DNA from: a phage
Direction: 5' to 3' (one strand)
Sequence record: PZ445451.1
DNA length: 64,000 nucleotides
The notes beneath the pieces were generated by a model. That model had not been told where the DNA came from and made no database searches. It saw only the letters and a list, made by a program, of their open reading frames with translations. The position numbers and the translations under genes are program-made. This document shows positions 3,618 through 38,073 of the stretch, piece after piece (positions within the stretch are counted from its first letter, which is position 1; the number at the start of each line of letters is the position of its first letter).

Positions 3618-6392
3618 TTAGTTTATCAGTTTATTTATGTCTGGTAAAAGATTTATTTCACCTAAGAAATCACCTTCACCTTCCTCTAGCCAACTCTCAT
3701 ATGCTTGTGCATGATTATAGTTACCATCAAAAGAATCTGCAACAAATTTTTCTACAGTTTTTCGAGATGTGCCAGCGCCAAATACACCAAGTTTAATACT
3801 ATTGATCGGTAAAGTGGTGCTTGTTGGTACTTTCTCTGTTGCAACACGGTTGATATCTATAATCTCCTGTACGGTTGTGTTCCATTGTAAGCATTTAACA
3901 CAACGGGTATGCGCTACATACAGTAGGTTTCGCTCTGCCTCTTCCAGTCCTACCCATTCACCAGTTTTTTTATCATAATTGGAAGGAAAATCATTAGCAA
4001 CAATAACCTGATCCCACTCCAAACCTTTAGACTTGTGTGCTGTAGTCAATGTGACTTTTGCTGTAGGAGAATTTCTATGCGTTCTAAGTGTATGTGCTAT
4101 AGTGTTTGCCTTGCCAGAAACTACGATGTTTAACAAGCGTTTAGCATCTGGATCAGCCTCTGCACACTCAACAAATTCATTCCAGTCTGCGTAAGGTAAT
4201 ACAGTTTCATGTTTTACTTTCTCAATATCTCCTCTCCGAAGAGCATTAACACTATCTACCATAGAGATAAAATCCCTGGTATCTACGTTAATAATAATTT
4301 CTTCCCCATCTGCAATACGATCCATTGCCTCCATAAGCAAGGTTAAATTCTTGCGAAAGATGATAGTGTAAGGTTTTGTATAGTCTACAACATCTGATTT
4401 GTAGCTACCTACTACAGTATCAAAGCCTTTACCAACCAAAGGATGACGCAAAGGTTCTTTATCGCTTAAAATCATATTGGCAATGTTTGCCACTTTGGGG
4501 CCAAAACGGAAGCAAGCAGTTAATGGAAGCTCTGCCCCATACTTAGCTGTTTCAATCATCATATTAGAGCTACCTCTAAATTGATAAATGCAGTTGTGGC
4601 TAAGAATTTCATTGCCAAAGAAGTTAGCAGTATCCTCTACTTCAATATCATAATAGATACCCTCACTATCTACAATGTCCACAATCTCTTCTGCCGTTAC
4701 AGTATCACCATCTTTTACCAACACAGACATGCCTTTAAACAAACCCGCTGCCGGAATTAAGTTATATTTGGCACTGTTCACAGAGGACATGCATTCTTTT
4801 AAAGATGCAAACGGAACTATTTCAAGGATCTTTTGTGCAAAACTCAATGCTTCACGATAAGAATTGAAATATTTACGTACACGGTAACGACCTTCCAATT
4901 TAGCAGCACTTACGCTTACACCTGCTTTAATCAGTGAAGAATAGATCGGCATTTCACTTTCTGTCCACTCAAAACTAACTTGTGTTCCTTTACAACCTTG
5001 TGCTCGCAAAGTCACTGTTAGCATTTTTCTTTCATCTACTGCACAATTGATGCTGTGCCAGTGTGGATAAGCAAAATGATAATCTTTATCCTCTAAAAGT
5101 TTAAAACCATTTTGTCCGAATTGTTCAAAGATGTTATTGATCCTTTCTTGATTAATGCCGCGTGAACTTGCTTCAAATACACAAGTAGGAATGCCATATT
5201 GTAAACTGTATGCCATTTCTTTTTCCATAGCAGCTTCACGGTTTTCAACAATATCCAACACCCATAATTTCTGTGCTTTTTCAGAACGTGTACGTTGCCC
5301 CAGTTTAGAAAAACCTTCTTTATCATCGAATTTGTTAGTGATCCCTACTCGGAAACCTAAATCTTTCCTCCACATTAGGTATACCACCATCTGATCATCT
5401 TTCAGAACATAGGATGAAGCCCAAATACGATGGTTATGTGTCATATCTAAAGTTTTACCTGTGGCAGTAATAATATTCCTACCTTTTGTACGTGTAGATA
5501 AAGTCTTATTTGTTACTTTTCTAAATGTAATTTTACCATTAGAATAAGACTCTACCTTATCACCGATTTGTAGGTCTTTCATTGTAACCTGACCATTCTC
5601 GGTATTAAGTACCGTGTTTTCCGACACACATTGGAATTCATCGCCCACTACCACAATTTGTTTTGCAGATTTAGCATTTCGCAGAATAGACAAGAATGCA
5701 GGGTTAACATCCTGGAATTCATCACCAAAAATAATGTCATAACCAAGATCAGCACCTGATAACTCAAACAATTTTACATAGGTGTCATGCGTCATCAAAG
5801 TATCTGTGTTAGGATCAATGCGCTCTCGCCACAATTGTTTTGCATACTTAACTACTTCTGTAATTAGTTTGTGTTCGTTAATACCTTTTCTTTTAATATC
5901 TGCAAGATGTACACCAGGGAAATGTTTACGGCTGATAAAAGGATCATCCGAAAATTCAAACTTACCTACGGTTTGCTTGATCATTAAACCAATCATAGCA
6001 CGAGTTAAAAGTGTTTTCCCTCGTTTATCAATAAGATTATTAATCTTAAATTTCTTTGCTATCTCACTACCTGTACCTGCAACGTTAACATACTGTCCTT
6101 CTGGTCGTGACAGTTTTGCACGTAAACGATGATCCAGGAATTGATAGCAAATGGAATGCAATGTACGGCATTCTACATTTGGTGGCATCTTACGCCGTGC
6201 TTCTTCTGCCATGCTTTTATTGAAAGCTAAGTAAAGAATGCGATCTTCTGTACTGTTAGCCAGCAAATAAAGTGTTGACGTTTTGCCTGATCCAGATTTA
6301 GCTTGGATAGTTAAAAAACGATGGTCTGGAAAAGCCTCCTTAATAGCTGTTTGCTCTTCTGTTGGAGTAAAACTCAACTCTTTCTTAGCCAT
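3618..6392 (-). CDS. SF1 UvrD/PcrA-like DNA helicase, intein-containing precursor
   Basis: Track ORF; start moved to MAKKELSF (ATG 6392). Walker A AKSGSGKTSTL, motif II FGDEFQD, motif III GDEFQ|CIYQFRG split by an in-frame insert, C-terminal TTAHKSKGLEWDQVIV..LLYVAHTRCVK. Confidence 0.85.
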   Translation of the reverse strand: MAKKELSFTPTEEQTAIKEAFPDHRFLTIQAKSGSGKTSTLYLLANSTEDRILYLAFNKSMAEEARRKMPPNVECRTLHSICYQFLDHRLRAKLSRPEGQYVNVAGTGSEIAKKFKINNLIDKRGKTLLTRAMIGLMIKQTVGKFEFSDDPFISRKHFPGVHLADIKRKGINEHKLITEVVKYAKQLWRERIDPNTDTLMTHDTYVKLFELSGADLGYDIIFGDEFQDVNPAFLSILRNAKSAKQIVVVGDEFQCVSENTVLNTENGQVTMKDLQIGDKVESYSNGKITFRKVTNKTLSTRTKGRNIITATGKTLDMTHNHRIWASSYVLKDDQMVVYLMWRKDLGFRVGITNKFDDKEGFSKLGQRTRSEKAQKLWVLDIVENREAAMEKEMAYSLQYGIPTCVFEASSRGINQERINNIFEQFGQNGFKLLEDKDYHFAYPHWHSINCAVDERKMLTVTLRAQGCKGTQVSFEWTESEMPIYSSLIKAGVSVSAAKLEGRYRVRKYFNSYREALSFAQKILEIVPFASLKECMSSVNSAKYNLIPAAGLFKGMSVLVKDGDTVTAEEIVDIVDSEGIYYDIEVEDTANFFGNEILSHNCIYQFRGSSNMMIETAKYGAELPLTACFRFGPKVANIANMILSDKEPLRHPLVGKGFDTVVGSYKSDVVDYTKPYTIIFRKNLTLLMEAMDRIADGEEIIINVDTRDFISMVDSVNALRRGDIEKVKHETVLPYADWNEFVECAEADPDAKRLLNIVVSGKANTIAHTLRTHRNSPTAKVTLTTAHKSKGLEWDQVIVANDFPSNYDKKTGEWVGLEEAERNLLYVAHTRCVKCLQWNTTVQEIIDINRVATEKVPTSTTLPINSIKLGVFGAGTSRKTVEKFVADSFDGNYNHAQAYESWLEEGEGDFLGEINLLPDINKLIN
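4593..5630 (-). mobile_element. Intein (346 aa) inserted in helicase motif III
   Basis: Insert begins CVSENTVLNTENG (block A), has TxxH-like MTHNHRI (block B) and ends ..YYDIEVEDTANFFGNEILSHN followed by extein Cys. Removing it restores GDEFQCIYQFRG. Coordinates derived from track residue numbering (residues 268-613). Confidence 0.75.
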
Positions 6393-9847: not shown

Positions 9848-10114
9848 CTAATTACTGTTAGATCTGTACTCTGTCTTCCATTCACAATGGTAAACTTCAA
9901 CAGGTTCTAACTTCCAGTGTTCAGGAACTAGTTCAGGACAATATCTACAAAAGAGAAATAGATAGATAACTAAGACAGGTATTAAATAGTAAAATGGTAT
10001 ACGATCATAACCATACTTACGAGATAACATGTAGACATATAGATAGGGTATAACAATTAATCCTATAACTATAAGTAAGAAGAGAAGTATAAACCTTAGT
10101 GTAGTAACATCCAT
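9848..10114 (-). CDS. Small membrane protein (88 aa)
   Basis: Track ORF; two strongly hydrophobic segments. Confidence 0.5.
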   Translation of the reverse strand: MDVTTLRFILLFLLIVIGLIVIPYLYVYMLSRKYGYDRIPFYYLIPVLVIYLFLFCRYCPELVPEHWKLEPVEVYHCEWKTEYRSNSN

Positions 10115-10278
10115 AGTATTCTCCTATACAGTAATATACTCTGTTCCTGCCCCTCCATGAGTGACAGGAACAATATCTATAGAGAATACTAACTCGCTTC
10201 GCTCGTCACCTTTCAGGTTTAGGGTAGCATGTTTTTCTGAAAAAGTCAATACTCTCCACAAAACTTTACAAAATACTT

Positions 10279-15876: not shown

Positions 15877-15900
15877 AAACCCGCTTCGGCGGGTTTTCTT
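15877..15900 (+). terminator. Rho-independent terminator (CCCGC-TTCG-GCGGG-TTTTCTT)
   Basis: Seen directly after AAA+ ATPase gene. Confidence 0.7.
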
Positions 15901-15934
15901 GTATTAATACCAGATTTAATAAGAGGAGTAATAG

Positions 15935-17890: not shown

Positions 17891-18101
17891 TATTTTGAAA
17901 ATTTTTATTTTTATAAAAAGGGGTGTGGGTTTCATGTACGGAAATTCACCCTCTGCACAGTATATCCAGAGTAAGTAGTATTCTACACCCTGTTAATAAA
18001 GTATTTAATTTGTTTGTTGGACTATGGTATCTGATCTTTAAAAGGCATACTATCTCTTAACTACTACTTATAACAAAACAGTAAAATCATTTTTATAAAA
18101 A

Positions 18102-18307
18102 GGACAAAATTATTTAAAGTTTTTACAGATTTTTGGATACAAATTTTGAAAATGAAAAGTTCAAGTTTGGTCAAAATTATTTAAAGTTTTTGTACGTATT
18201 TCTATCCAGATTTTGAAAATGAAAACTTCAATTTTTTAAAAATTCCCCAGTTTATTTAAAGTTTTTTTGCCTTTTTCCGTAGAAAAATCAAAAATGAAAA
18301 GTTCAAT
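18102..18307. repeat. Three tandem ~65-70 bp direct repeats (TATTTAAAGTTTTT ... TTTTGAAAATGAAAAGTTCAA)
   Basis: Seen directly: copies start near 18109, 18176 and 18249, in a convergent intergenic region. Confidence 0.7.
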
Positions 18308-18330
18308 TTCGTGTTTTTATAGGTGTGCGT

Positions 18331-18442
18331 ATGATAATCATTCTCATTTGTAAATGAGAATCATTATCATTTAATTATGTAAGTGATAATCATTCTCAGT
18401 AAGAGAATGAGAATCATTAGCAAATGAGAATTTTTCTCATTT
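18331..18442. promoter_or_regulatory. Array of 5 alternately oriented Fur-box-like palindromic motifs (TGATAATCATTCTCATT / AATGAGAATCATTATC)
   Basis: Seen directly; motif shares GATAATCATT core with the Fur box consensus GATAATGATAATCATTATC. Confidence 0.55.
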
Positions 18443-19339: not shown

Positions 19340-19397
19340 TTGACAACGTTTTTTAATCTGATAAGATGTATCACATAGGGCGGCAATAGTGCCGCTC
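19340..19397 (+). promoter_or_regulatory. sigma70-like promoter (TTGACA/TAAGAT) plus conserved 5' leader hairpin (GGGCGGCAATAGTGCCGCTC)
   Basis: Seen directly upstream of gene 19420. Confidence 0.6.
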
Positions 19398-19419
19398 ATA
19401 ACAGAAGAGAGAAATAATC

Positions 19420-19692
19420 ATGGCATCATATAGCGCATCAATGATCGTAACGGGCATGACTGGTAAACCTATGCGCGGTGGCGGATCTTTCGCTAACATC
19501 AATATTGATGGGCGTTTATCCCTGGATGCAGCGATCACCGTGGCACGGGAAACATTTAAAAAAGAATGTAATTTCAATAAACAAGATTATCTCGGCTTCG
19601 TTATTGAAAAAACAGCGCGCTTTGTTGATTATAAAAGCCCGAAAATGATCGACACTACACTAAAAGCGCAAGATGTAGCATTTTTGCTTTAA
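19420..19692 (+). CDS. Hypothetical protein (90 aa)
   Basis: Track ORF preceded by promoter-hairpin-SD (AGAAGAGAG) unit. Confidence 0.55.
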   Translation: MASYSASMIVTGMTGKPMRGGGSFANINIDGRLSLDAAITVARETFKKECNFNKQDYLGFVIEKTARFVDYKSPKMIDTTLKAQDVAFLL

Positions 19693-19695
19693 GGC

Positions 19696-19755
19696 TTGAC
19701 ACTGAAAAATAATTTAGTAATATATACCACATAGGGCGGGAAATGGTTTCCCGCC
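19696..19755 (+). promoter_or_regulatory. sigma70-like promoter (TTGACA/TAATAT) plus conserved leader hairpin (GGGCGGGAAATGGTTTCCCGCC)
   Basis: Seen directly upstream of gene 19778. Confidence 0.6.
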
Positions 19756-19777
19756 AAATCAAAGAAAGGGTAACACA

Positions 19778-20140
19778 ATGAGCAAGCAAATCAATACTAT
19801 CATGTTAAACCTGGTATCTTTCCGCGATGACGTGAAAAATCTTTCGCGTGATGCAGTGGATGCACGGATCGAAAGCTATCGCACACAGATCGCAACATTA
19901 CCGTTAAAACGTGATCAACATGCCGCTAATATGATGCTTGGTGCTATGATTAAAAAGATGATTCAGTGTGATCTTACCCTGGCTTATGAATATGCTGGCG
20001 ATCTCTTTGTAACGTATAATAAGCCCGTTCCAGGTATGAGCACCACGGAAGAATTGCATGCCTTAAATTTGCGACAAGATGCATGGGATAACATGCGCCG
20101 TGTTATGGTATGGGCCGAAAGCGGTAAAATTTACGAATAA
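19778..20140 (+). CDS. Hypothetical protein (120 aa)
   Basis: Track ORF after promoter-hairpin unit. Confidence 0.55.
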   Translation: MSKQINTIMLNLVSFRDDVKNLSRDAVDARIESYRTQIATLPLKRDQHAANMMLGAMIKKMIQCDLTLAYEYAGDLFVTYNKPVPGMSTTEELHALNLRQDAWDNMRRVMVWAESGKIYE

Positions 20141-20146
20141 AAACGG

Positions 20147-20200
20147 TTGACATTGCACTAAAACCTGATAAGCTATCTTAAAGCGGGAATTGTTCCCGCT
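20147..20200 (+). promoter_or_regulatory. sigma70-like promoter (TTGACA) plus leader hairpin variant (AGCGGGAATTGTTCCCGCT)
   Basis: Seen directly upstream of small gene 20219. Confidence 0.55.
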
Positions 20201-20218
20201 TACATAGGATAAAACTTT

Positions 20219-20365
20219 ATGAAACAATATGTAATGAGTATCCACACCAAAAACGGCGCTACTGTTACGACTCCGGCACGGTTTGCACTTGTAAACCGTT
20301 GCAAGAGACTAAAACGAGAGTTAAAAAATAACCGTGCAACGGGCTTTAAACGCTGGGGAGGATAA
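20219..20365 (+). CDS. Small basic protein (48 aa, MKQYVMSIHTKNGATVTTPARFALVNRCKRLKRE..)
   Basis: Manual ORF below size cut-off; follows promoter-hairpin unit; stop 2 nt before next start. Confidence 0.4.
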   Translation: MKQYVMSIHTKNGATVTTPARFALVNRCKRLKRELKNNRATGFKRWGG

Positions 20366-20367
20366 TC

Positions 20368-20628
20368 TTGTTTTTTCTAAAAGTTTGTGATAATGTGATC
20401 GCTTTTGAACATGCTACAACGTTCGACCTGGCGAGATACGCTATCAGGTTTAAAGATAATGTTTATCCCCGTGCTGGCGGCGGTTACACTATTTTTAATC
20501 ACCGTAACGCTCAATTAACGGATATAACTAATCCAGATCCTGGAGTGTATCGGATAGGCTGGCTACCGTCAAAAGACGCTGCAAGCATGTTTAAGGTGTG
20601 TAAACTACTAACAGAAGAGGCGAACTAA
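20368..20628 (+). CDS. Hypothetical protein (86 aa), probable TTG start
   Basis: Track ORF; start codon TTG preceded by GGGGAGGA SD. Confidence 0.45.
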   Translation: MFFLKVCDNVIAFEHATTFDLARYAIRFKDNVYPRAGGGYTIFNHRNAQLTDITNPDPGVYRIGWLPSKDAASMFKVCKLLTEEAN

Positions 20629-20629
20629 C

Positions 20630-21184
20630 ATGGGGCGTGAATATGTGATCCAGTCCTGGGTAAAGCATGATGCTAATGATCCGCGCATAATACCAGATGA
20701 CATGATCGATCACATGGTAGGGTATAGCGGGGAGCAGATAGGAAATCGAGCGGCAAAGAGCAACGGCAACACCAGGACGCGATCCGTTCGTCCTGGATGG
20801 CTGGCGAATGGTAACGCTGACATTGCAAGCGCCGCAGATCCAAGCGATGACGCTAAAAATAATCCCTTGTACAGCATTGATCCGGCTTTTAAGGTGTTGG
20901 AAGAGTATCCCGCTAAATTAGCCGCACTAGATAAGGCATACGAAGAAAAGCGCATGGCCTGGACTGTATACAACACCGCTAAAATGGTGCTAGATGCAAA
21001 ACTAATTAAAGCCCAGGAGAAGATCAATAAACTTGTTACCATAGCGCAAGAGGAAGACCAGGGCGACCAGGAGGAAGAGGAAGAAATCATGCCTACCCTG
21101 GAAGAGGAAGAGATCCAGCCATACATGCCGACAGAAGAGGAAAAAAGACAAGCCCTAAAAAATTATGAAAATTGCATTGTGTAA
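20630..21184 (+). CDS. Hypothetical protein (184 aa) with acidic C-terminal tail
   Basis: Track ORF; C-terminus EEDQGDQEEEEEIMPTLEEEE. Confidence 0.55.
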   Translation: MGREYVIQSWVKHDANDPRIIPDDMIDHMVGYSGEQIGNRAAKSNGNTRTRSVRPGWLANGNADIASAADPSDDAKNNPLYSIDPAFKVLEEYPAKLAALDKAYEEKRMAWTVYNTAKMVLDAKLIKAQEKINKLVTIAQEEDQGDQEEEEEIMPTLEEEEIQPYMPTEEEKRQALKNYENCIV

Positions 21185-21187
21185 GGC

Positions 21188-21244
21188 TTGACATATGCAA
21201 ACAAGCCCCGTAATATGTACCACATAAAGCGGGGCAACGCCCCA
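21188..21244 (+). promoter_or_regulatory. sigma70-like promoter (TTGACA-N17-TAATAT) plus leader hairpin variant (GCGGGGCAACGCCCC)
   Basis: Seen directly. Confidence 0.55.
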
Positions 21245-21265
21245 TAAGGTGAAATAAAAAATCAC

Positions 21266-21293
21266 TTGACACCTGAAATCAGTAAGCTATAAT
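21266..21293 (+). promoter_or_regulatory. Near-consensus sigma70 promoter (TTGACA-N16-TATAAT), second of a tandem pair
   Basis: Seen directly, about 40 nt upstream of gene 21331. Confidence 0.6.
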
Positions 21294-21330
21294 GCTTATA
21301 TAGATTGAAACATTACTAAGGAATAAAAGC

Positions 21331-21510
21331 ATGGCTATTATTGCAAAGACTGAGATCGTAGGTTTAGATTCTATCATCCTGGCATATGAGGAAGCTATAG
21401 AAATGTATGTGGTTTCCTATGGTGATTATATCCGTGAATATAAATCTATTGATCTAGCTTTTGAATGCTATATTCGCCAGGTCAATAAAGCATATGATGA
21501 TTATCGTTAA
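21331..21510 (+). CDS. Small hypothetical protein (59 aa)
   Basis: Manual ORF just below size cut-off (MAIIAKTEIVGLDSIILAYEE..), downstream of tandem promoters. Confidence 0.45.
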   Translation: MAIIAKTEIVGLDSIILAYEEAIEMYVVSYGDYIREYKSIDLAFECYIRQVNKAYDDYR

Positions 21511-21529
21511 AAGTTTTAGTCTTGTGCTA

Positions 21530-21558
21530 TTGACAACGAACGATAGTACAAGCATAAT
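21530..21558 (+). promoter_or_regulatory. sigma70-like promoter (TTGACA-N17-CATAAT)
   Basis: Seen directly upstream of gene 21606; no leader hairpin in this copy. Confidence 0.5.
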
Positions 21559-21605
21559 AACTTTTATCGGGAATACTCCTAACTAATCAAAAGAGATTAA
21601 AGACT

Positions 21606-21971
21606 ATGGCTAAAAATATCAATGTTTCTGCTTATGCTACCCTGGCTAACACTGCTAAAATTGAACTATCCAGCATTGAAGCGGTACATATTAGCGCCCG
21701 TCGCTGGTTTCAAAAGTCTTATGGTAATACTTATTTCTCTTTGATGGTTGACGTTGAGATCGGCGGTAAACTGATCGAAGTAGTTAACGTTCCGTTTCAA
21801 TATGGTTATGGGGATCATTTTGATACCGTTGCCCTAGAAGAGTTTAGCAAGGTTATCAACCTGGAAGGTAAAGAGTTTTCAAATTATGCTTACCTTTCCC
21901 GCTTTTGCCGTGATAATGGGATCGCTGTATACAGTCATGCAAGCGATGTAAAACGTAAAAAAGATTTATAA
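21606..21971 (+). CDS. Hypothetical protein (121 aa)
   Basis: Track ORF. Confidence 0.55.
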   Translation: MAKNINVSAYATLANTAKIELSSIEAVHISARRWFQKSYGNTYFSLMVDVEIGGKLIEVVNVPFQYGYGDHFDTVALEEFSKVINLEGKEFSNYAYLSRFCRDNGIAVYSHASDVKRKKDL

Positions 21972-21977
21972 AAAGCA

Positions 21978-22036
21978 TTGACAGCACGAATAAAAAGCAT
22001 ATAATACTTATATCGAGAGCGGGAATAGTTCCCGCC
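21978..22036 (+). promoter_or_regulatory. sigma70-like promoter (TTGACA/TATAAT) plus leader hairpin (GCGGGAATAGTTCCCGC)
   Basis: Seen directly upstream of gene 22060. Confidence 0.6.
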
Positions 22037-22059
22037 TCACTGAAAAAGAGATTAACATC

Positions 22060-22299
22060 ATGGCTAAATCTAAAATGTACAACGGTCACAAAAATAAAAC
22101 TCATTGGAATGTAAGCCTTTGGATTAATAATGATGAATCGTTATACTTATACGCTGTAGGTTTAATAAATGAGTGCGGCAATAAAGATAAAGCGGCGGAT
22201 CTGATGTGCTACAGATTAAAACAGGATGGAATCACTCATACACCTGATGGTTTCAAGTATAGTAAAACTGCAATCCGTGCCGCTATGGTAGGAATGTAA
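22060..22299 (+). CDS. Hypothetical protein (79 aa)
   Basis: Track ORF after promoter-hairpin unit. Confidence 0.55.
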   Translation: MAKSKMYNGHKNKTHWNVSLWINNDESLYLYAVGLINECGNKDKAADLMCYRLKQDGITHTPDGFKYSKTAIRAAMVGM

Positions 22300-22308
22300 T
22301 AAAAGCAG

Positions 22309-22368
22309 TTGACAACGTTTTTTAATCTGGTATAGTTTATCGCATAGGGCGGGAAATGGTTTCCCGCC
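22309..22368 (+). promoter_or_regulatory. sigma70-like promoter (TTGACA/TATAGT) plus conserved leader hairpin (GGGCGGGAAATGGTTTCCCGCC)
   Basis: Seen directly; identical hairpin to 19734 copy. Confidence 0.6.
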
Positions 22369-22390
22369 AAATCAAAGAAAGGTTATCATT

Positions 22391-22618
22391 ATGGCTATCG
22401 TTATTGTTCGCGTATCCGGCACGGTTGGAATCTCCCAGGTAGTAGCAGTTATCACCGAGAAGAAAGGGGATGATCTTCACTCCTCATTGAATAGCTGGGC
22501 GGTCGCTAACTTTGGGCAATGGTCGAGCGTTGAGTACATCGAATCCTACCAGGTGCCAACGATTAGCCTGACCGATCTCAACGTTGATCGTCTGTTATGC
22601 CTGGATCAATTAAACTAA
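22391..22618 (+). CDS. Hypothetical protein (75 aa)
   Basis: Track ORF after promoter-hairpin unit. Confidence 0.55.
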   Translation: MAIVIVRVSGTVGISQVVAVITEKKGDDLHSSLNSWAVANFGQWSSVEYIESYQVPTISLTDLNVDRLLCLDQLN

Positions 22619-22626
22619 AAATAATA

Positions 22627-22684
22627 TTGACAAGACAACTAAAATTAGTAAAATGTAATTCATAGGGCGGCAATAGTGCCGCCC
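22627..22684 (+). promoter_or_regulatory. sigma70-like promoter (TTGACA/TAAAAT) plus leader hairpin (GGGCGGCAATAGTGCCGCCC)
   Basis: Seen directly; perfect 8-bp stem. Confidence 0.6.
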
Positions 22685-22705
22685 CTAGTAAGAGAGATTA
22701 TCAAA

Positions 22706-22921
22706 ATGGCTAATATCCGCACCTTGTTAAAAAATGCAAAGCAAGTTTTATTTTCAGATGACGAGTATTTCAACAAAGACATTACAGGCGTGAAAAATTT
22801 AAAAGACGTGAAGGATGTTATCGGTATCCGTGGATCTTTACGTAAAGGTGACATATACGGTAACAAGGTGCAATATAAACTGTCAAAAGATTATGATTTT
22901 ACTTTGACAATTATTTCATAA
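22706..22921 (+). CDS. Hypothetical protein (71 aa)
   Basis: Track ORF; start moved to MANIRT (ATG 22706) because the track start lies inside the leader hairpin. Confidence 0.55.
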   Translation: MANIRTLLKNAKQVLFSDDEYFNKDITGVKNLKDVKDVIGIRGSLRKGDIYGNKVQYKLSKDYDFTLTIIS

Positions 22922-22927
22922 AACTAC

Positions 22928-22988
22928 TTGTAAACCTGGTAAAATAAAGTAAACTATATTCATCAAGGCGGTGGAATAGCCCACCGCC
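22928..22988 (+). promoter_or_regulatory. Weak promoter-like sequence plus leader hairpin variant (GGCGGTGGAATAGCCCACCGCC)
   Basis: Seen directly; stem arms co-vary relative to other copies. Confidence 0.5.
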
Positions 22989-23012
22989 TAACAAAGAGAA
23001 GAGGAAAACATC

Positions 23013-23183
23013 ATGATCACTTTCACTACCCGTGAAGCCGCTCGCAACGTTGCACGTAAAGTTAACGCCGCCAACCTGGGCGCTACGCTTAAAGCCCCGG
23101 TGAAAGATGAATCAGGAAAATGGATCTTTCCTGGTCTGCGTCACGCTGATAAGCTGGGAACATTAACGTTAAAAAATAAATAA
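23013..23183 (+). CDS. Small hypothetical protein (56 aa, MITFTTREAARNVARKVNAANLGATLKAP..)
   Basis: Manual ORF below size cut-off; AGAGAAGAGG SD after hairpin. Confidence 0.45.
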   Translation: MITFTTREAARNVARKVNAANLGATLKAPVKDESGKWIFPGLRHADKLGTLTLKNK

Positions 23184-23190
23184 TATCCGC

Positions 23191-23249
23191 TTGACAGTAG
23201 CATCGTTTATAAGTAAAGTAACAACAACGGCGGGAAATGGTTTCCCGCC
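23191..23249 (+). promoter_or_regulatory. sigma70-like promoter (TTGACA/TAAAGT) plus leader hairpin (GGCGGGAAATGGTTTCCCGCC)
   Basis: Seen directly upstream of gene 23270. Confidence 0.6.
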
Positions 23250-23269
23250 ATCAATAAAGAGATAAGATT

Positions 23270-23629
23270 ATGAAATCAGTAAAAGCAATTAAAACTTACA
23301 TTGTGTCGGCTATTTCTTTTGATGGTACTACAACCGAAAAAGAAAAAATCACCGAACTGATGCGCCGTTTTAACTCTGAATACTGGTATCAATCTAATCG
23401 TGATCGTTATAATAACAATATGGTACAAGCTGTTAAAAGCTGGTTACAAGGTTTACCGTCAGATATCAATATCGCTTTTAATTATAACGAGATCGATCAA
23501 TTATTAATTGAATGGAAGTACATAAAAGAAACAAGCAAAGAAACAACCGTTACCCGTGAGCGGGAAAATTATTGGTTATATATTGCAAGCATGATCGTAA
23601 CTTTGGCAAAATATCATAACGTAGCGTAA
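23270..23629 (+). CDS. Hypothetical protein (119 aa)
   Basis: Track ORF after promoter-hairpin unit. Confidence 0.55.
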   Translation: MKSVKAIKTYIVSAISFDGTTTEKEKITELMRRFNSEYWYQSNRDRYNNNMVQAVKSWLQGLPSDINIAFNYNEIDQLLIEWKYIKETSKETTVTRERENYWLYIASMIVTLAKYHNVA

Positions 23630-23643
23630 TCGAGAGGAAAAAC

Positions 23644-23781
23644 ATGAACGCATCACAGCAGATCGAAAAATTCAACCGCAACAAAGCGAGTAAAGATTGG
23701 AACGAAGAGATCACCAAGAAAGGCGACAAGCGGAACAAAACAAAAAGAGATCGCAGCAGCAAAAGATACTGGAACGAATAA
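23644..23781 (+). CDS. Small basic protein (45 aa)
   Basis: Manual ORF; GAGAGGAAAAAC-ATG SD; followed directly by terminator. Confidence 0.4.
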   Translation: MNASQQIEKFNRNKASKDWNEEITKKGDKRNKTKRDRSSKRYWNE

Positions 23782-23782
23782 C

Positions 23783-23809
23783 AAAAAAGGGCGCAATAAG
23801 CGCCCTTTT
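23783..23809 (+). terminator. Rho-independent terminator (GGGCGC-AATAA-GCGCCC-TTTT)
   Basis: Seen directly. Confidence 0.65.
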
Positions 23810-23899
23810 AGCTTATATAGAGGCTTGTTGCTTATAGGCAAGGGTAACGCCAGGATAAGCCTATAAACCACGTTAGACGGCTTTACAGGAGCTTTAAAA

Positions 23900-24082
23900 A
23901 TGAAATTAGAGGAAATAAGCAAGGCACTAGCCCAGGGGCAAAGGTTATGCGCCCGATATCGTGATCAATATGGCTTCATAACTAGCGGCGTGATCCTGGG
24001 GATGGAAGGCAATAAGATTTTTATTGACACGTTGAAAAACGTTGTATATAGTGACAATATAATCTCAATAAAACATATATGA
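23900..24082 (+). CDS. Hypothetical protein (60 aa)
   Basis: Track ORF; GGAG SD. Confidence 0.45.
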   Translation: MKLEEISKALAQGQRLCARYRDQYGFITSGVILGMEGNKIFIDTLKNVVYSDNIISIKHI

Positions 24083-24090
24083 GGCAAGAA

Positions 24091-24492
24091 ATGAAAAAAT
24101 TATTGATCGCTGGTTTACTCTCTTTTGGCATGGTTGGAACATCTAGCGCGGCGATATCCTCCACAGTAGCAGAATTAAGCGCCGTTGATGCAATGGAAAA
24201 CGTCATGATCATTAATAATGCGATCCCCGATGAAATCATGGAGGATTCACACATGATCGCTTATGGTGCTGTTACACAACTAACGGCAAAAATAGATAAA
24301 TCTATTGTTAATGGCTTAAATGAAGATGTACCATGTGAAATTATTACCAGTGTGCTCACTACTCAAAATTTTACGCCGTGGCTAAAAAGTATTCAAAAAG
24401 TACACAGTACAGCCGCAGATCGTAGCAATGAAAAACTAGTGTCAGCACTTGCAACGTATACCCTAGCAAAATGCACCGAAATAAAAGATTGA
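24091..24492 (+). CDS. Putative secreted protein (133 aa)
   Basis: Track ORF; start moved to MKKLLIAGLLSFGMVGTSSA (signal-peptide-like) with GAGG SD. Confidence 0.55.
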   Translation: MKKLLIAGLLSFGMVGTSSAAISSTVAELSAVDAMENVMIINNAIPDEIMEDSHMIAYGAVTQLTAKIDKSIVNGLNEDVPCEIITSVLTTQNFTPWLKSIQKVHSTAADRSNEKLVSALATYTLAKCTEIKD

Positions 24493-24517
24493 CAACATAG
24501 AAAGCACGTTATAAGAT
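24489..24517 (+). promoter_or_regulatory. sigma70-like promoter (TTGACA-N17-TAAGAT)
   Basis: Seen directly; -35 overlaps stop of upstream gene. Confidence 0.5.
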
Positions 24518-24539
24518 ACACACAACAAAGGAGAACTAC

Positions 24540-24842
24540 ATGAACGGCATAGCTAAAACGTTTTTTCTTTTTTCTGGTGTAAATGATCCATCAATAAAAG
24601 TCGATAGCGTAAAAGAAAACAATACTATCACCGCTAAATTGTTTCAAGATGAAACAAATAACGTGCTAATCATTAATCTTAAAGAAATAACAAAAGGTTA
24701 TTATACTATTGCTTACCATGCGATCTATAATGCTGGTACTAGTGAGGAAGTGCAAACAAGCAACAACGAAAGCGCGGCGCTACCTGGTGATCTGGTGCTG
24801 GGCGTTATCAGTTTAATTGTCAATGATTTTTTTAAGGAGTAA
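24540..24842 (+). CDS. Hypothetical protein (100 aa)
   Basis: Track ORF; AAAGGAG SD. Confidence 0.5.
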   Translation: MNGIAKTFFLFSGVNDPSIKVDSVKENNTITAKLFQDETNNVLIINLKEITKGYYTIAYHAIYNAGTSEEVQTSNNESAALPGDLVLGVISLIVNDFFKE

Positions 24843-25100
24843 AACCATGCCCTATTTACATTTATTTTTCGGTATCTTATTGACAGGATCTTTTTTCTTC
24901 TGTATGCTTGTTTCTATTGTAAACCACGTTTTAAAACATTAAGGAAACAGCATGAAAATTATTCCCGTACAGTATAGCGTAATAAATCCAGCATATGAGG
25001 AAGGAAGGAAAACAAGCATGGCTTTATGTTGTATTGCTACTATAGCCATGTTATTATACACTGTGTTTTAATAGGTTTTATAGTTGTACGCTTTAAAGGC

Positions 25101-25153
25101 TTGACAATTTTTTGTTATGCTTTAAAATATATCTTGAAAACGGCAAAGGCCGC
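25101..25153 (+). promoter_or_regulatory. sigma70-like promoter (TTGACA/TAAAAT) plus short leader hairpin (CGGCAAAGGCCG)
   Basis: Seen directly upstream of gene 25172. Confidence 0.5.
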
Positions 25154-25171
25154 AAACAAAAGGGTAAAATT

Positions 25172-25495
25172 ATGAAATCTGTGATCGGTGTTTATTTGGA
25201 TAATTCTGATTTTTTCTATCATCGCGCTCGTTTCCTTGATGCTATTGATATGATAGAATCAGGCTTTAAAGAATACCGCCTTGCACATGATGACCTGGAA
25301 GCATTACAGGGCAATAGTGTTTTTACATTGCAAGCGAAAGCACTATGTAAAAGCCGGATCGACATTGCGAGCAAAAAGATAGAACGCGGCATGTCCTGGT
25401 TGCGCACCGCAGAAATCAACATGGGGCAATGGTACGGCAAAAACTTAGAAAATAAACATACCTTTGTCAATGTAGAAAATATTGAAGATTATTGA
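25172..25495 (+). CDS. Hypothetical protein (107 aa)
   Basis: Track ORF; start moved to MKSVIGVY downstream of the promoter. Confidence 0.55.
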   Translation: MKSVIGVYLDNSDFFYHRARFLDAIDMIESGFKEYRLAHDDLEALQGNSVFTLQAKALCKSRIDIASKKIERGMSWLRTAEINMGQWYGKNLENKHTFVNVENIEDY

Positions 25496-25558
25496 TTGAC
25501 AGCACATCTAACGAGTAGTATATTGTATCTCATAGAGCGGGGAAATGGTTTCCCCGCC
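25496..25558 (+). promoter_or_regulatory. sigma70-like promoter (TTGACA-N17-TATATT) plus leader hairpin (GCGGGGAAATGGTTTCCCCGC)
   Basis: Seen directly; stem lengthened by one compensated G-C pair. Confidence 0.6.
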
Positions 25559-25577
25559 TTAAAAGAAGAGATAAGCT

Positions 25578-25862
25578 ATGAAGATCACAAAAGCACTTTC
25601 CAACTATGCAGCACGTCGCGGATTATGCTTATCCGTTGAAAACTTAGGGAAAGAAGATTTTTTGTGTTTTTGGGAGCTTGAAAATGAAAGTGAATGGTTG
25701 TTCTCTTATTCTATCTGCGAAGATCAAAACGGTTGTTTGTTAACCTGGCGCGGTAATATCTATCTACCGGAAGAAATCAAAGAAGAATTGCCAGGCACGA
25801 TCATGACTGAGAAACAGCTTAAGGAAGTGATTAATTTTGTAGGGCAAAACATTAAAAAATAA
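25578..25862 (+). CDS. Hypothetical protein (94 aa)
   Basis: Track ORF after promoter-hairpin unit. Confidence 0.55.
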   Translation: MKITKALSNYAARRGLCLSVENLGKEDFLCFWELENESEWLFSYSICEDQNGCLLTWRGNIYLPEEIKEELPGTIMTEKQLKEVINFVGQNIKK

Positions 25863-25863
25863 T

Positions 25864-25922
25864 TTGACACTAGGCAAACAACGTAGTAAAGTTTATCACA
25901 TAGGGCGGCAATAGTGCCGCTC
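25864..25922 (+). promoter_or_regulatory. sigma70-like promoter (TTGACA-N17-TAAAGT) plus leader hairpin (GGGCGGCAATAGTGCCGCTC)
   Basis: Seen directly; same hairpin variant as 19379. Confidence 0.6.
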
Positions 25923-25943
25923 ATAACAGAAGAGAAACAAATC

Positions 25944-26114
25944 ATGATCCCGACTATGTTTTATGTATCGCGCAAAGGTCACAATATTTTTTGGTCTGAA
26001 GATTTAAATGAAGCCATGACGTTTGCCCGTGATCGTGTTGCTATCGGTGGCGTTAACATTACTGTAACCGATGAAAACGGCATTGAATACTATAACGGCG
26101 ACGATGAAGAGTAA
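25944..26114 (+). CDS. Hypothetical protein (56 aa)
   Basis: Track ORF; start moved to MIPTMFYV because the track start lies in the hairpin. Confidence 0.5.
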   Translation: MIPTMFYVSRKGHNIFWSEDLNEAMTFARDRVAIGGVNITVTDENGIEYYNGDDEE

Positions 26115-26121
26115 TTAATAA

Positions 26122-26142
26122 GGCGGGGGAGTATTCCCCGCC
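26122..26142 (+). promoter_or_regulatory. Leader-type hairpin (GGCGGGGGAGTATTCCCCGCC) without an upstream promoter
   Basis: Seen directly between genes 25944 and 26162. Confidence 0.5.
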
Positions 26143-26161
26143 GTCAATAAAGAGGTAAATC

Positions 26162-26431
26162 ATGAAAATATCTTTGGACGTTGCAATCAAGGCCATCGAA
26201 TCCGGTTACACCCTGGTAAAAGATGATAAGGCTAAAATAGTGCATCATGTTAACAAGGAAACAGGCGAAAGCATGATCACATATAAAGCCGCCTACTTTC
26301 TCCAATCAGTAGCAGATCCGCGCGTACAACGCCAGGTTACAGCGGCTATTGCTAAAAAATTATGTGCTTTACAGGGCACAAGTTTTAACGAGATCGCCCC
26401 GTGTTTTGACTGGTCGAGCTTGAAAAAATAG
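26162..26431 (+). CDS. Hypothetical protein (89 aa)
   Basis: Track ORF; AAAGAGG SD after hairpin. Confidence 0.55.
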   Translation: MKISLDVAIKAIESGYTLVKDDKAKIVHHVNKETGESMITYKAAYFLQSVADPRVQRQVTAAIAKKLCALQGTSFNEIAPCFDWSSLKK

Positions 26432-26432
26432 T

Positions 26433-26494
26433 TTGACAATATGCTGTTATCTGGTAAAGTGTACGACATAGGGCGAGGCAATAAGGCAACGCCC
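26433..26494 (+). promoter_or_regulatory. sigma70-like promoter (TTGACA/TAAAGT) plus divergent leader hairpin (GGGCGAGGCAATAAGGCAACGCCC)
   Basis: Seen directly. Confidence 0.5.
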
Positions 26495-26513
26495 ATTAAT
26501 GAGGGGTAGAATC

Positions 26514-26618
26514 ATGTTAGAGAAAATTTTCACGGTTGTAATAGTGGGCCTGGCGTTATCGGTTGGATTGGTTGCAACTATGGCTAACATGATCCTATCT
26601 TCCCACGGTATTGGATAA
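26514..26618 (+). CDS. Small hydrophobic peptide (34 aa, MLEKIFTVVIVGLALSVGLVATMANMILSSHGIG)
   Basis: Manual ORF; GAGGGG SD; first ORF after the promoter-hairpin unit. Confidence 0.3.
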   Translation: MLEKIFTVVIVGLALSVGLVATMANMILSSHGIG

Positions 26619-26628
26619 GGTGAATCAA

Positions 26629-26844
26629 ATGATCACGAATAAGACAGGTAAAACAGAATTTTTACGCAGCTTGCAAATAGGTAAACCTGAGATCTGGCAT
26701 TGCACTAAATCCGCGCATAATGAAATGAAAGATTTTACCGCTACTTTACAACGTGTTAAAATATCTATCACACAGAAAAAAGCCTTGTTAGTAGTAGAAA
26801 ACGAGATCCCGCAAACCATTATTATTGTCGAGCGTACAGCATGA
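26629..26844 (+). CDS. Hypothetical protein (71 aa)
   Basis: Track ORF; start moved to MITNKTGK (AAGGTGA SD). Confidence 0.5.
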   Translation: MITNKTGKTEFLRSLQIGKPEIWHCTKSAHNEMKDFTATLQRVKISITQKKALLVVENEIPQTIIIVERTA

Positions 26845-27227
26845 AAACTGAAATCATTAACGAAATGATCAACGGCTATAAAGAAGCCTTTATTTTTGCC
26901 GAACCAGCGACGGATCACAATGGGGAATATATTGAGAATCTAGACGATTATGATTTTTCTCCTAGCGCCCTGAAACGTATTACCAGCGATGTGACCGCCT
27001 TTTGTAGTGCCAATGTTGCCGCTATCTCTGAGGCAATGAGCGACGGCGCTACAGCAAACCAGATCGGGAATGATTTACATTTTACCCGTAACGGTCACGG
27101 CGTAGGTTTTTGGGATCGCCCTGAAATATACACTACTAACACCGCCAACCGTTTAACTGATGCAGCTAAATTAATGCCATTGGTGCATGCTTACATTGGT
27201 GAAGATAATTTGATTTATATTGACTAA
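26841..27227 (+). CDS. Hypothetical protein (128 aa)
   Basis: Track ORF; ATGA overlap with upstream gene. Confidence 0.55.
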   Translation: MKTEIINEMINGYKEAFIFAEPATDHNGEYIENLDDYDFSPSALKRITSDVTAFCSANVAAISEAMSDGATANQIGNDLHFTRNGHGVGFWDRPEIYTTNTANRLTDAAKLMPLVHAYIGEDNLIYID

Positions 27228-27232
27228 AAGTG

Positions 27233-27291
27233 TTGACACCGATCCCCAATATGTTATTATTTACCACGTAAGCGGGAAATGGTTTCCCGCC
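27233..27291 (+). promoter_or_regulatory. sigma70-like promoter (TTGACA/TATTAT) plus leader hairpin (GCGGGAAATGGTTTCCCGC)
   Basis: Seen directly. Confidence 0.6.
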
Positions 27292-27314
27292 AGGTAATCA
27301 AAAAGGTAAATACT

Positions 27315-27704
27315 ATGCGCAACCTGGTTTCTGTTTCTAACGTTGAAAAATTTCAATCTTTACAGGGTATCGTTAACAACGTAGCGCCTTTTTTAGTCAA
27401 CGGCTTGATTGCAAAGATGAAAAATAAACATCATGCGGCATGGTCTGCTTACTGCTTTGATAATGATGAAAAAGCGGCTGAAATGATGCTAAATATGCTG
27501 TTAGACAGTGTAGAATCATCTTTACCGGAAAACATCGCAGAAGAGATCACCTATCGTTATAATATGGCGATCACTTACCAGGAGGTTGCGCAATTTAATA
27601 TGATGGACGATGACGAACAACAGGATCAGGAAATGTTTTGGGAGTATGCTGATCGTCAATCGGCTTTTGATGAAAAATTAGCGATGTATTATAACGAATA
27701 TTAA
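27315..27704 (+). CDS. Hypothetical protein (129 aa)
   Basis: Track ORF; start moved to MRNLVSVS downstream of hairpin. Confidence 0.55.
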   Translation: MRNLVSVSNVEKFQSLQGIVNNVAPFLVNGLIAKMKNKHHAAWSAYCFDNDEKAAEMMLNMLLDSVESSLPENIAEEITYRYNMAITYQEVAQFNMMDDDEQQDQEMFWEYADRQSAFDEKLAMYYNEY

Positions 27705-27714
27705 TACACGGTAA

Positions 27715-27745
27715 AAGAAAGGGGCGCACTAAGCGCCCTTTTTTG
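27715..27745 (+). terminator. Rho-independent terminator (GGGGCGC-ACTAA-GCGCCC-TTTTTT)
   Basis: Seen directly. Confidence 0.7.
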
Positions 27746-28089
27746 TATTCTTTTTTCACGATGGAAACAACACGTAAAGAATAGGCGTAAAGGTGGCGTA
27801 AAACCATCTAAAACCGACTGTAACCGCTTAAACAAGGTAGGAATGATTAATCACCTTACCAGGGTGAAAAAGCTGTTATAAAGCTACCTAGAGCGTTTAA
27901 AGCACATAGGGAATAATTTGCTTTTTATCTTGCCTTTTATCCTGCTTTTGATTATTATTATGGAACGGGCGGCACCTGGGGACAGGGGAAGATAATCACC
28001 GGAAGATCCCGCTATATATTGATAGCTAATACCTATTAAACAACAAAACATCAAAGGAATAAACTATCAAATCTTTACAATCCTACCTA

Positions 28090-28150
28090 TTGACACAGGA
28101 TCACCCTTATACTAATATGTATCCCGTAGGGCGGGAAATGGTTTCCCGCT
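28090..28150 (+). promoter_or_regulatory. sigma70-like promoter (TTGACA-N17-TAATAT) plus leader hairpin (GGGCGGGAAATGGTTTCCCGCT)
   Basis: Seen directly. Confidence 0.6.
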
Positions 28151-28168
28151 TGATATAGGAATCATACC

Positions 28169-28402
28169 ATGATCGAACAAATTAAAAGCACTACACCAAA
28201 TGTTAACGGCAATGTTTCACACTTTATCGGTGATAATGAAAGGGGCACACCATACGCCGCCGTAACCGTGCAACCTAATGGCGATTATTGGTTTACCGTG
28301 TACGGATCATACTCTTTCGGACGCCCGGCACATGATAAGATCTTGCAAGCGGTTAAACCTGCGGGGAAGAATATCACAGCAGAAAAATTTTATAAAAAAT
28401 AG
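28169..28402 (+). CDS. Hypothetical protein (77 aa)
   Basis: Track ORF after promoter-hairpin unit. Confidence 0.55.
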   Translation: MIEQIKSTTPNVNGNVSHFIGDNERGTPYAAVTVQPNGDYWFTVYGSYSFGRPAHDKILQAVKPAGKNITAEKFYKK

Positions 28403-29106: not shown

Positions 29107-29184
29107 TAAATGATAATCATTCTTATTTATAGCTGATTATTTATGCAATAAACTGCATAATGCAATAATGATAATCATTCTTAA
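29107..29184. promoter_or_regulatory. Two Fur-box-like sites (AAATGATAATCATTCTTA; ATAATGATAATCATTCTTA)
   Basis: Seen directly; second copy matches 16 of 18 positions of Fur consensus ATAATGATAATCATTATC. Confidence 0.55.
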
Positions 29185-29542
29185 CTTATGACCATCTAAC
29201 CTATAAAATAATAAGTTATCTAACTAAATTAAAACTAATTATCCCACCTTTATTTATAACTTACTTTTACTATCTCATTGATAACCTTATATTAAACAAC
29301 AATAACCAATATAAATCATTACTAAGCTAACTATAATCTATCTAACCCTTAAAACTATAACTATAATCTATCGAATTGTTGCACAAAGTAACTATTAAAT
29401 TGTTAGTAACTTTACTAAATAATTAATATCCTATCTATTTATGATCTAATCTTTACCTTACTATCTATTACCTAAATAACCATTTCATACAGAAATTATT
29501 TCATACAATAACTATAACAAGAAATATAATTCGCAAGCGTAT

Positions 29543-30042: not shown

Positions 30043-30066
30043 ATGCAAATGATAATCATTATCAGC
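30043..30066. promoter_or_regulatory. Fur-box-like site (GCAAATGATAATCATTATC)
   Basis: Seen directly; AATGATAATCATTATC is a 16/16 match to the 3' part of the Fur consensus. Confidence 0.6.
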
Positions 30067-30229: not shown

Positions 30230-30264
30230 GAATGATAATGCAAATGATAATTATTCTCATTGAT
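30230..30264. promoter_or_regulatory. Fur-box-like site (GAATGATAATGCAAATGATAATTATTCTCATT)
   Basis: Seen directly. Confidence 0.5.
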
Positions 30265-37866: not shown

Positions 37867-38073
37867 GAGTAGTAAGTAAGGTATAAAGAGTATATAGTTA
37901 GTTATAGAGTTAGTAACATTACATATACTCTTTCCATGTATAACATGGAATATTCTCTACCTCGCTATCGCTCGGTATATAAGATTAGGGTAGCATGTTT
38001 TTTACGAAAAGTAAAACTGTTTATACCGATTGATAGCAGGTTTTTAATAGATTCTATCTATGAGGAGTAGAAA

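Follow-up and report, generated by a model that had tools for sequence, protein, structure and literature searches.

A short intergenic element, found twice in the 64,000-nucleotide (nt) stretch of phage DNA analysed here (the window) and once more outside it, is best described as a conserved regulatory module in which a host-type extended −10 promoter is joined to a sequence-constrained 5′ mini-hairpin leader. The window is part of the genome of Escherichia phage PaulScherrer (Bas60; Justusliebigvirus, Stephanstirmvirinae, phi92-like), deposited as MZ501100.1; a 3-kb piece around the element is 100% identical to that record, and window positions equal record positions minus 64675. We assign a probability of roughly 0.6 to the reading that the host RNA polymerase (RNAP) starts transcription at this module, that the hairpin serves as a stabilizer or handle at the 5′ end of the RNA, and that the second copy gives rise to a small RNA.

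The window contains the 18-mer TTAGGGTAGCATGTTTTT two times only, on the plus strand in both cases (10219-10236 and 37985-38002), with about 0.12 matches expected there even when three mismatches are allowed. It is accompanied by CTCGCTTCGCTC at 10193-10204 in copy 1 and by a counterpart one base longer, CTCGCTATCGCTC at 37961-37973, in copy 2, and the gapless repeat between the two copies (family D18) measures 31 nt at 84% identity. As the first-pass annotation of this DNA had described, copy 1 lies between minus-strand genes (in a 164-nt gap) and copy 2 between plus-strand genes (in a 207-nt gap), and palindromes are present near both (TGTTCCTG/CAGGAACA at 10142-10172 near copy 1; AAAGAGTATAT/ATATACTCTTT at 37885-37933 and TTCCATGT.ACATGGAA at 37932-37950 near copy 2). 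A motif scan of the genome, which like all genome-wide scans reported here covered record positions 1-150000, revealed a third copy on the plus strand of the record at 142862-142919, about 14 kb past the end of the window and in the orientation opposite to that of copies 1 and 2. The orientation of the element is therefore not fixed relative to the genome, a property that had been proposed for it and that holds for the two copies inside the window. A covariance model built from 13 distinct copies representing at least four lineages finds exactly three copies in the 150-kb genome (78.7, 68.7 and 63.4 bits; next best match, 18.6 bits), and the search in related phages returned copies in other genera as well.

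On the minus strand of the window the element has the layout of a promoter. The reverse complement of copy 1 reads TTGACT-TTTTCAGAAAAACATGC-TACCCT-AAACCTGAAAGGTGAC-GAGCGAAGCGAG and that of copy 2 TTTACT-TTTCGTAAAAAACATGC-TACCCT-AATCTTATATACC-GAGCGATAGCGAG; copy 3, on the plus strand of the record, reads TTGACA-AACGCAAAAAAGTATGC-TACCCT-AACCCCCGAAAAACGCC-GAGCGCAGCGAG. Each comprises a −35 hexamer, then 17 bp of spacer with the TG of an extended −10 at its end, a TAnnnT −10 hexamer and a purine 7-8 nt further on. All 13 distinct copies keep TT(G/T)AC, TG and TACCCT(A) while the rest varies; the spacer measures 17-18 bp in every one of them, TG(C/G/A)TACCCT is invariant with its TG at −15/−14, and a purine stands at the start distance in nearly all. 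The first-pass annotation saw the element correctly and read the strand opposite to the promoter: its 18-mer is the reverse complement of the extended −10 block plus the A-rich spacer, and its “CTCGCTTCGCTCG” corresponds to about +10 to +25 of the predicted transcript. Its view that a promoter was unlikely does not survive the architecture found on the minus strand of every copy, two of the three copies facing genes. A palindrome in the spacer of copy 1 (TTTTTC.GAAAAA) was rejected since it is not kept in the other copies.

These features place the element close to the extended −10 sigma-70 promoters of E. coli and of lytic phages such as T4 (early promoters) and rV5 (predicted), with which it shares a TTGACA-like −35, the 17-bp spacer, TG at −15/−14, T-12, A-11 and T-7, a purine start 7-8 nt on and AT-rich DNA upstream. 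It differs from them in the GC-rich −10 TACCCT, which matches the consensus at three of six positions and which, together with the AA after it and usually a C before it, is exact across paralogues and genera. The resulting CTACCCT-AA resembles CTAcacT-TAA, the sequence preferred by sigma-S. Dependence on host sigma-70 promoters, many of them with an extended −10, has been proposed from sequence for the rV5 group (PMC3606486). Among IMG/VR sequences matching TTGAC..TGnTACCCTAA, clusters number at least 49 at a spacer of 17 bp, at least 19 at 16 bp, 29 at 18 bp and 31 at 19 bp, a preference for 17 bp such as would be expected of a working promoter. The core TTGAC-N15/16-TGnTACCCTAA is also shared by a family of phage contigs of about 43 kb in IMG/VR (L043, L072, L084, L113, L124, L144, L149, L157, L161, L202, L211 and L212), in which a conserved CCCCCTACACCACCCAAGGGT leader follows the −10 core and the GAGCG hairpin is absent. 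The unusual TACCCT −10 thus recurs in unrelated phages, and the many promoter-core matches in IMG/VR that lack the hairpin indicate that the hairpin is specific to the present phage group and not a general companion of this −10.

The hairpin occupies about +7 to +30 of the predicted transcript. Its core, GAGCG-(N or NN)-AGCGAG (12-13 nt), is invariant in the 13 copies, and the loop centre alone varies, with GAA, GCA and GATA as the only loops. The corresponding variants GCGAAGC, GCGCAGC and GCGATAGC all fit the DNA mini-hairpin consensus GCGNAGC/GCGNNAGC exactly. CGAG...CGAG is the preferred context for tandem sheared G·A pairs in structural work, and the element shares these flanks, as well as the loop variants, with the mini-hairpins. 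The consensus describes a 2-bp stem closed by a sheared G·A pair (Hirao and colleagues; reviewed in PMC13037366), and sites of this kind occur in the complementary-strand origins of G4, St-1 and alpha3, near ssiA of RSF1010 and in the promoters of the N4 virion RNAP (PMC13037366). Outside the core, the first flanking pair is C-G in 13 of 13 copies, the second is C-G in seven and A-U in four, and a further pair is standard in all 13 (UA in six, UG in four, CG in three). Covariation of the flanks, calculated from these 13 partly related sequences, scores 0.313, compared with 0.186 for column shuffles (2 of 500 of which reach 0.313) and 0.05-0.11 for slid registers. Since the G-U pairs occur on one strand, the structure is expected on the sense strand, that is, in the RNA or in the non-template DNA strand; the core being present in RNA as well, the match to the mini-hairpin consensus cannot by itself separate a DNA role from an RNA role. 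For most copies the fold of lowest energy computed by ViennaRNA is this mini-hairpin architecture, and some copies pair the initial GAA of the transcript with a UUC further on.

The known mini-hairpins act in the single-stranded DNA of single-stranded replicons or as promoters for a phage RNAP. In the element the motif differs from these cases in lying 10-30 nt past a host-type promoter, in a 150-kb double-stranded DNA myovirus, and it may act in RNA. A promoter of the N4 virion-RNAP type, whose hairpin has a 5-7-bp stem and a 3-nt loop, does not match the arrangement, as the hairpin of the element stands downstream of a sigma-70-type promoter rather than upstream of the start; no gene is annotated as an RNAP in the phage record, whose longest annotated coding sequences specify an intein-containing DNA polymerase of about 1,100 amino acids (aa) and tail-fibre proteins of about 950 aa, the N4-type enzyme being about 3,500 aa long. 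Closer in position are the 5′ stabilizing stem-loops exemplified by the ompA 5′ untranslated region, which likewise lie at or within a few nucleotides of the (in our case predicted) 5′ end. Generic protective 5′ hairpins are not sequence-constrained, and the element differs from them in an invariant core that is common to three otherwise unrelated transcripts. Hairpins behind promoters are not confined to the element. About 15 early-type promoters of PaulScherrer at window 19340-28170, of near-consensus sigma-70 type (TTGACA, 16-17 bp, TAnnnT), each have a GC-rich hairpin (GGGCGGGAAATGGTTTCCCGCC or GGGCGGCAATAGTGCCGC) at about +4 to +8, with a ribosome-binding site (RBS) and a small gene after it. 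These cassettes mark the combination of a promoter with a 5′ hairpin as a general design of this genome, of which the studied element is a separate, sequence-constrained class.

In the favoured reading, E. coli RNAP carrying sigma-70 (or the related sigma-S) would recognize TTGAC(T/A), the 17-bp spacer, TGn and TACCCT and would begin transcription 7-8 nt past the −10. The nascent RNA would fold, over about +1 to +30, into a compact hairpin whose GNA or GNNA loop is carried by two G-C pairs, a tandem G·A/A·G pair and a variable base stem of 2-6 bp. With three paralogous modules in each genome, three different transcription units would start in this way: copy 1 would serve a small membrane-protein gene, copy 2 an orphan small RNA (about 100-130 nt) running antisense to a block of plus-strand genes, and copy 3, which lies outside the window, the PRPP-synthetase/NAMPT/tRNA arm. 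The hairpin would act in the RNA as a 5′-terminal element and possibly as a handle for a phage or host factor. Because nucleotide +1 is already paired in several copies, the transcript would be shielded from 5′-end-dependent decay. The sequences themselves show the architecture of the module, its copy number, synteny, conservation and covariation and its match to the mini-hairpin consensus; promoter activity, the start sites, a role of the hairpin in RNA and the small RNA are inferred. The features of the two copies in the window are collected in Table 1.

Table 1. Observed and predicted features of copies 1 and 2 of the element, in window coordinates
Feature	Position	Strand	Basis or detail
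Copy 1 (type 1), −35 hexamer TTGACT	10244..10249	−	Sequence; TTGAC/TTTAC kept relative to 12 other aligned copies
Copy 1, extended −10 TGC-TACCCT, 17 bp past the −35	10221..10229	−	TG and TACCCT invariant in 13/13 aligned copies
Copy 1, predicted transcription start (G or A), 7-8 nt past the −10	10213..10214	−	Sigma-70 spacing
Copy 1, leader mini-hairpin 5′-UGAC GA GC GAA GC GA GUUA-3′	10190..10208	−	Invariant core, covarying flanks, predicted fold
Copy 1, remaining 5′ leader	10112..10189	−	Hairpin UGUUCCUG..CAGGAACA at 10142-10172, RBS AGGAG at 10121-10125, ATG at 10112-10114
88-aa predicted membrane protein bas60_0092, downstream of copy 1	9848..10114	−	tblastn distribution matches type-1 copies
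Copy 2 (type 2), −35 hexamer TTTACT	38010..38015	−	Sequence and alignment
Copy 2, extended −10 TGC-TACCCT, 17-bp spacer	37987..37995	−	Sequence and alignment
Copy 2, leader mini-hairpin 5′-ACC GA GC GAUA GC GA GGU-3′	37959..37976	−	Alignment, covariation, fold
Copy 2, predicted orphan transcript of about 110 nt, antisense to plus-strand genes	37870..37980	−	Mini-hairpin and hairpins at 37932-37950 and 37885-37933; no conserved open reading frame; approximate 3′ end

Each of the three copies in PaulScherrer represents a type that holds its genomic position across genera of the Stephanstirmvirinae. Within Justusliebigvirus the element regions, at 93-100% identity, are uninformative. Between genera the module is kept while the surrounding intergenic DNA fails to align: in Phapecoctavirus the match is limited to query positions 38-133 of copy 1 (79%), Klebsiella phages match at 74-88% and Citrobacter phage Tr1 at 71%. 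Types 1 and 3 face into genes, and type 2 faces against its neighbours with no open reading frame (ORF) downstream. PHROG searches assigned all five neighbouring proteins examined to families whose function is unknown.

Type 1 stands in front of the gene for the 88-aa predicted membrane protein, reading towards it, and is found in Justusliebigvirus and the Klebsiella-phage group. By tblastn, this gene is present in the same two groups and additionally in Citrobacter and a Salmonella phage; no match was obtained in Phapecoctavirus, which has two places for the element per genome. In the minimum-energy fold of the copy-1 leader, UAUUCUCUAUAG is paired with the RBS region, hinting at translational control. 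The type-1 leader of Klebsiella phage phi1_175008 (L005, 1570-1620) contains a long GC-rich hairpin followed by TTTTCTTTT and then the RBS, and the hairpin is possibly an attenuator or terminator; the leader in the E. coli phages differs from this orthologue in having no U-tract.

Type 2, present in PaulScherrer, FKP3, ESCO13, phiWec181, phiWec179 and SF1-1, is an orphan that faces against every neighbouring gene in a gap of roughly 80-360 nt, with only hairpins and AT-rich DNA downstream. Transcription from it probably yields an antisense RNA that is small (about 100-130 nt) and absent from the annotation, and the earlier suggestion of a small-RNA element fits copy 2. A terminator-like hairpin was called by the scanner on the plus strand at 37932-37950. 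About 14 nt upstream of the type-2 −35 stands ATTGATAGG (window 38028-38036; L004 at about 1437-1446 and 1477-1486; L481, L482 and L483), of which Phapecoctavirus has two occurrences and PaulScherrer and FKP3 a single inverted one (CTATCAAT); the motif may serve a regulator of the orphan copy alone.

Type 3 occupies a divergent intergenic region. In PaulScherrer this region is 410 nt long and separates bas60_0253 (minus strand) from the PRPP synthetase gene bas60_0254 (plus strand); in PaulScherrer, L012 and Tr1 the element faces PRPP synthetase, NAMPT and tRNA genes, and in a Phapecoctavirus-like contig it faces small ORFs and then tRNA genes. The scanner placed a weak minus-strand terminator-like hairpin over copy 3, where there is no gene to terminate.

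Several observations weigh against the promoter and leader-hairpin reading. The main internal weakness of the promoter part is the low match of TACCCT to TATAAT, which at three of six positions falls below the usual consensus-scan threshold of four; for this reason the consensus promoter/terminator scanner lists none of the three copies as a promoter. The three positions matched, T-12, A-11 and T-7, are the most important ones of the −10. Literature searches on promoters and transcriptomes of Phapecoctavirus, Stephanstirmvirinae, phi92 and phAPEC8 yielded no description of this element, nor any transcript or start-site data for a phage of the Stephanstirmvirinae. With respect to the hairpin, the sequences behind the covariation score are few and partly related, and the predicted nearest-neighbour energies are modest (−5 to −8.5 kcal/mol). 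In the comparison with shuffled sequences, five of six copies are not clearly below their shuffles (z about −0.7 to −1.3), and copy 2 alone clearly beats them (z = −3.95, with none of 200 shuffles folding as well). Copy 2 also faces against all neighbouring genes and is followed by no convincing U-tract terminator, and RNAalifold found only the mini-hairpin in common among the type-2 transcripts of five phages, which leaves a small-RNA fold conserved across genera unsupported. Finally, the exact conservation of TGnTACCCTAA together with the core exceeds what a plain promoter or a protective hairpin would need, and a specific partner is likely.

Such a partner is central to the strongest of the other explanations, according to which the element is a cis-acting RNA site comparable to lambdoid nut or HK022 put, where the nascent hairpin would recruit a phage or host protein to RNAP or to the transcript, and the three units would thereby be antiterminated, processed or controlled in translation. 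We regard this as rather improbable and clearly a minor alternative to the module proposed above. The invariance of 12 nt across genera, with the loop centre alone free, surpasses the demands on a generic protective hairpin and would be explained by it, as would the presence of few, promoter-proximal, transcribed hairpins repeated behind separate promoters of one genome, in the manner of nutL/nutR and putL/putR. The Klebsiella-phage type-1 leader, moreover, has, ahead of the gene, a strong hairpin followed by UUUUCUUUU, possibly a terminator subject to read-through. However, inspection of the leaders revealed no boxA (CGCUCUUUA-like; CGCUCUU(U)A in the RNA); the loops are 3-4 nt long, and the hairpin resembles neither boxB with its GNRA-like pentaloop nor the double hairpin of put. 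No N-like partner was recognized, and the neighbouring genes belong to PHROG families of unknown function. The invariance itself may come from the sequence needs of sheared G·A pairs and a GNA loop alone.

A role of the same hairpin in DNA is less probable still. Here the promoter would open the DNA or establish an R-loop, and a mini-hairpin on the displaced strand, resistant to single-stranded DNA-binding protein, would be a loading or priming signal for a gp4-like primase-helicase, beside an AT-rich unwinding region, in a transcription-activated replication origin. The core fits the consensus of the primase-dependent origins of G4, St-1 and alpha3 and of the site near RSF1010 ssiA, it is the non-template strand that forms the hairpin in every copy, and the phage encodes a primase/helicase (bas60_0046). 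With origins that combine a promoter and an unwinding region (the T4 R-loop origins oriF and oriG, the T7 primary origin, ColE1 RNA II with its primosome assembly site), the element shares a structured signal on the displaced strand and, in copy 3 and some type-2 copies, AT-rich DNA after the promoter: the 120-nt stretch behind copy 3 ranks third in the genome for AT content, and TTAATTA-rich tracts follow the FKP3 type-2 copy and the L012 type-3 copy. The analogy is one of sequence composition only, and it does not extend to copy 1, which has no AT-rich tract and is followed by an RBS and a gene within 100 nt. The genome's two most AT-rich regions with repeats are in other places, at about 18.1 kb and 29.2 kb of the window. 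Copy 3 also coincides with the global minimum of the cumulative GC skew, but the skew here merely tracks gene orientation, so a minimum at a divergent junction is uninformative and was rejected as an origin indicator. The presence of the core in RNA likewise means that the motif match does not single out a function in DNA. If true, this explanation would place a single-strand initiation signal of the G4/ssiA type within the promoters of a large double-stranded DNA myovirus.

Little weight is given, in turn, to a duplex operator, in which GAGCG, AGCGAG and perhaps TACCCTAA would be half-sites for a phage regulator, with blocking or activation of the three promoters as the result. An invariant motif just past the start site is in the classic roadblock position, the −10 region is conserved beyond the requirements of sigma-70, and genes for several putative DNA-binding or transcription factors are present in the phage. 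Against this, the spacing of the half-sites shifts by one base (A or C versus TA) and their distance from the −10 by several, which is rarely tolerated by rigid duplex-binding dimers, and the covariation of the flanks describes a stem whose G-U pairs fall on a single strand, pointing to a single-stranded structure.

The deposited annotation places tiny ORFs over both copies in the window, bas60_0093 (45 aa, minus strand, 10124-10261) over copy 1 and bas60_0170 (44 aa, plus strand, 37936-38070) over copy 2, and similar calls are made over the element in many related records. That these are genuine coding sequences is very improbable, even though the Klebsiella phage orthologue likewise has the copy-1 frame open. 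Between the −10 and the hairpin core the aligned copies have 13 to 17 nt, with differences that are not multiples of three, so that no frame is kept; the copy-1 frame meets a TAG within the conserved core of copy 2, the core falls into other frames in copy 3 and in the ESCO13 copy, and the two annotations lie on opposite strands of homologous DNA. The ORFs begin with TTG codons that lack ribosome-binding sites, and the −35 hexamer of the Klebsiella phage copy doubles as the start codon. Conservation therefore operates at the nucleotide level, and the tiny ORFs are probably spurious, the product of gene callers filling intergenic gaps. The element noticed at the outset is real, conserved and non-coding. 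Rfam 15 gave no match at gathering thresholds in the window, in two orthologous loci the element matched nothing there at E ≤ 10, and a tRNA scan of the window found none.

Least credible of all is the proposal, also made in the first-pass annotation, of a remnant of a small mobile element (a footprint of a homing endonuclease or of something resembling a miniature inverted-repeat transposable element): a short repeat is indeed dispersed in intergenic DNA, but there are only three copies, without terminal inverted repeats or target-site duplications, each syntenic in different genera beside function-linked neighbours, and scans of bacterial genomes and metagenomes with a loosened pattern returned, among the matches listed, only chance ones without −35/TG context and no copies in bacterial genomes or unrelated metagenome contigs. 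Coding sequence and mobile remnant together retain scarcely any probability. Strict-pattern matches without promoter context in IMG/VR (L011, L016/17/20 and L018) were likewise taken as chance, the one in L018 being a terminator-like hairpin with a GAAA tetraloop and not a copy of the element.

Transcription in phi92-like and phAPEC8-like phages, which are therapy candidates and members of the BASEL collection, is essentially unstudied. The module would provide a subfamily-wide promoter class with three predicted start sites and a probable unannotated antisense small RNA, and it would allow spurious ORF calls to be corrected in dozens of GenBank records. It also represents a natural case of the very stable GCGNAGC/GCGNNAGC mini-hairpin under selection beside a host-type promoter, and hence a tractable system in which a role of the hairpin in RNA (stability, factor binding) can be set against one on the displaced DNA strand (priming). 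Interest would be higher if the hairpin were a priming signal in DNA or recruited a dedicated factor.

Some further features of the window were encountered in the course of the analysis. The motif AATGATAATCATT(A/C)TCA, of about 20 nt, forms clusters at 18325-18421, 29109-29186, 30043-30067 and 30238-30270 and occurs also at 5072-5090, in very AT-rich stretches poor in ORFs (repeat families D5, D9 and D12). It is close to GATAATGATAATCATTATC, the consensus of the E. coli Fur box, and five loci lie within three mismatches of that sequence, with 0.03 expected. These may be arrays of Fur-binding sites in a phage, serving iron-responsive control or the titration of Fur. Three tandem AT-rich repeats of 67-75 nt (family D2) adjoin the Fur-like boxes at 18089-18309, and the 120-nt windows of lowest GC content in the whole genome start at about 18070 and 29202; the repeats are iteron-like, and a replication origin or a regulatory region may lie in this segment. 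Two distant sites, 15877-15904 and 41557-41584, have the 28-nt intrinsic-terminator sequence AAACCCGCTTCGGCGGGTTTTCTTGTAT in identical form, and a second terminator family (GGGCGCAATAAGCGCCCTTTT) has three copies, at 23779, 27712 and 28868.

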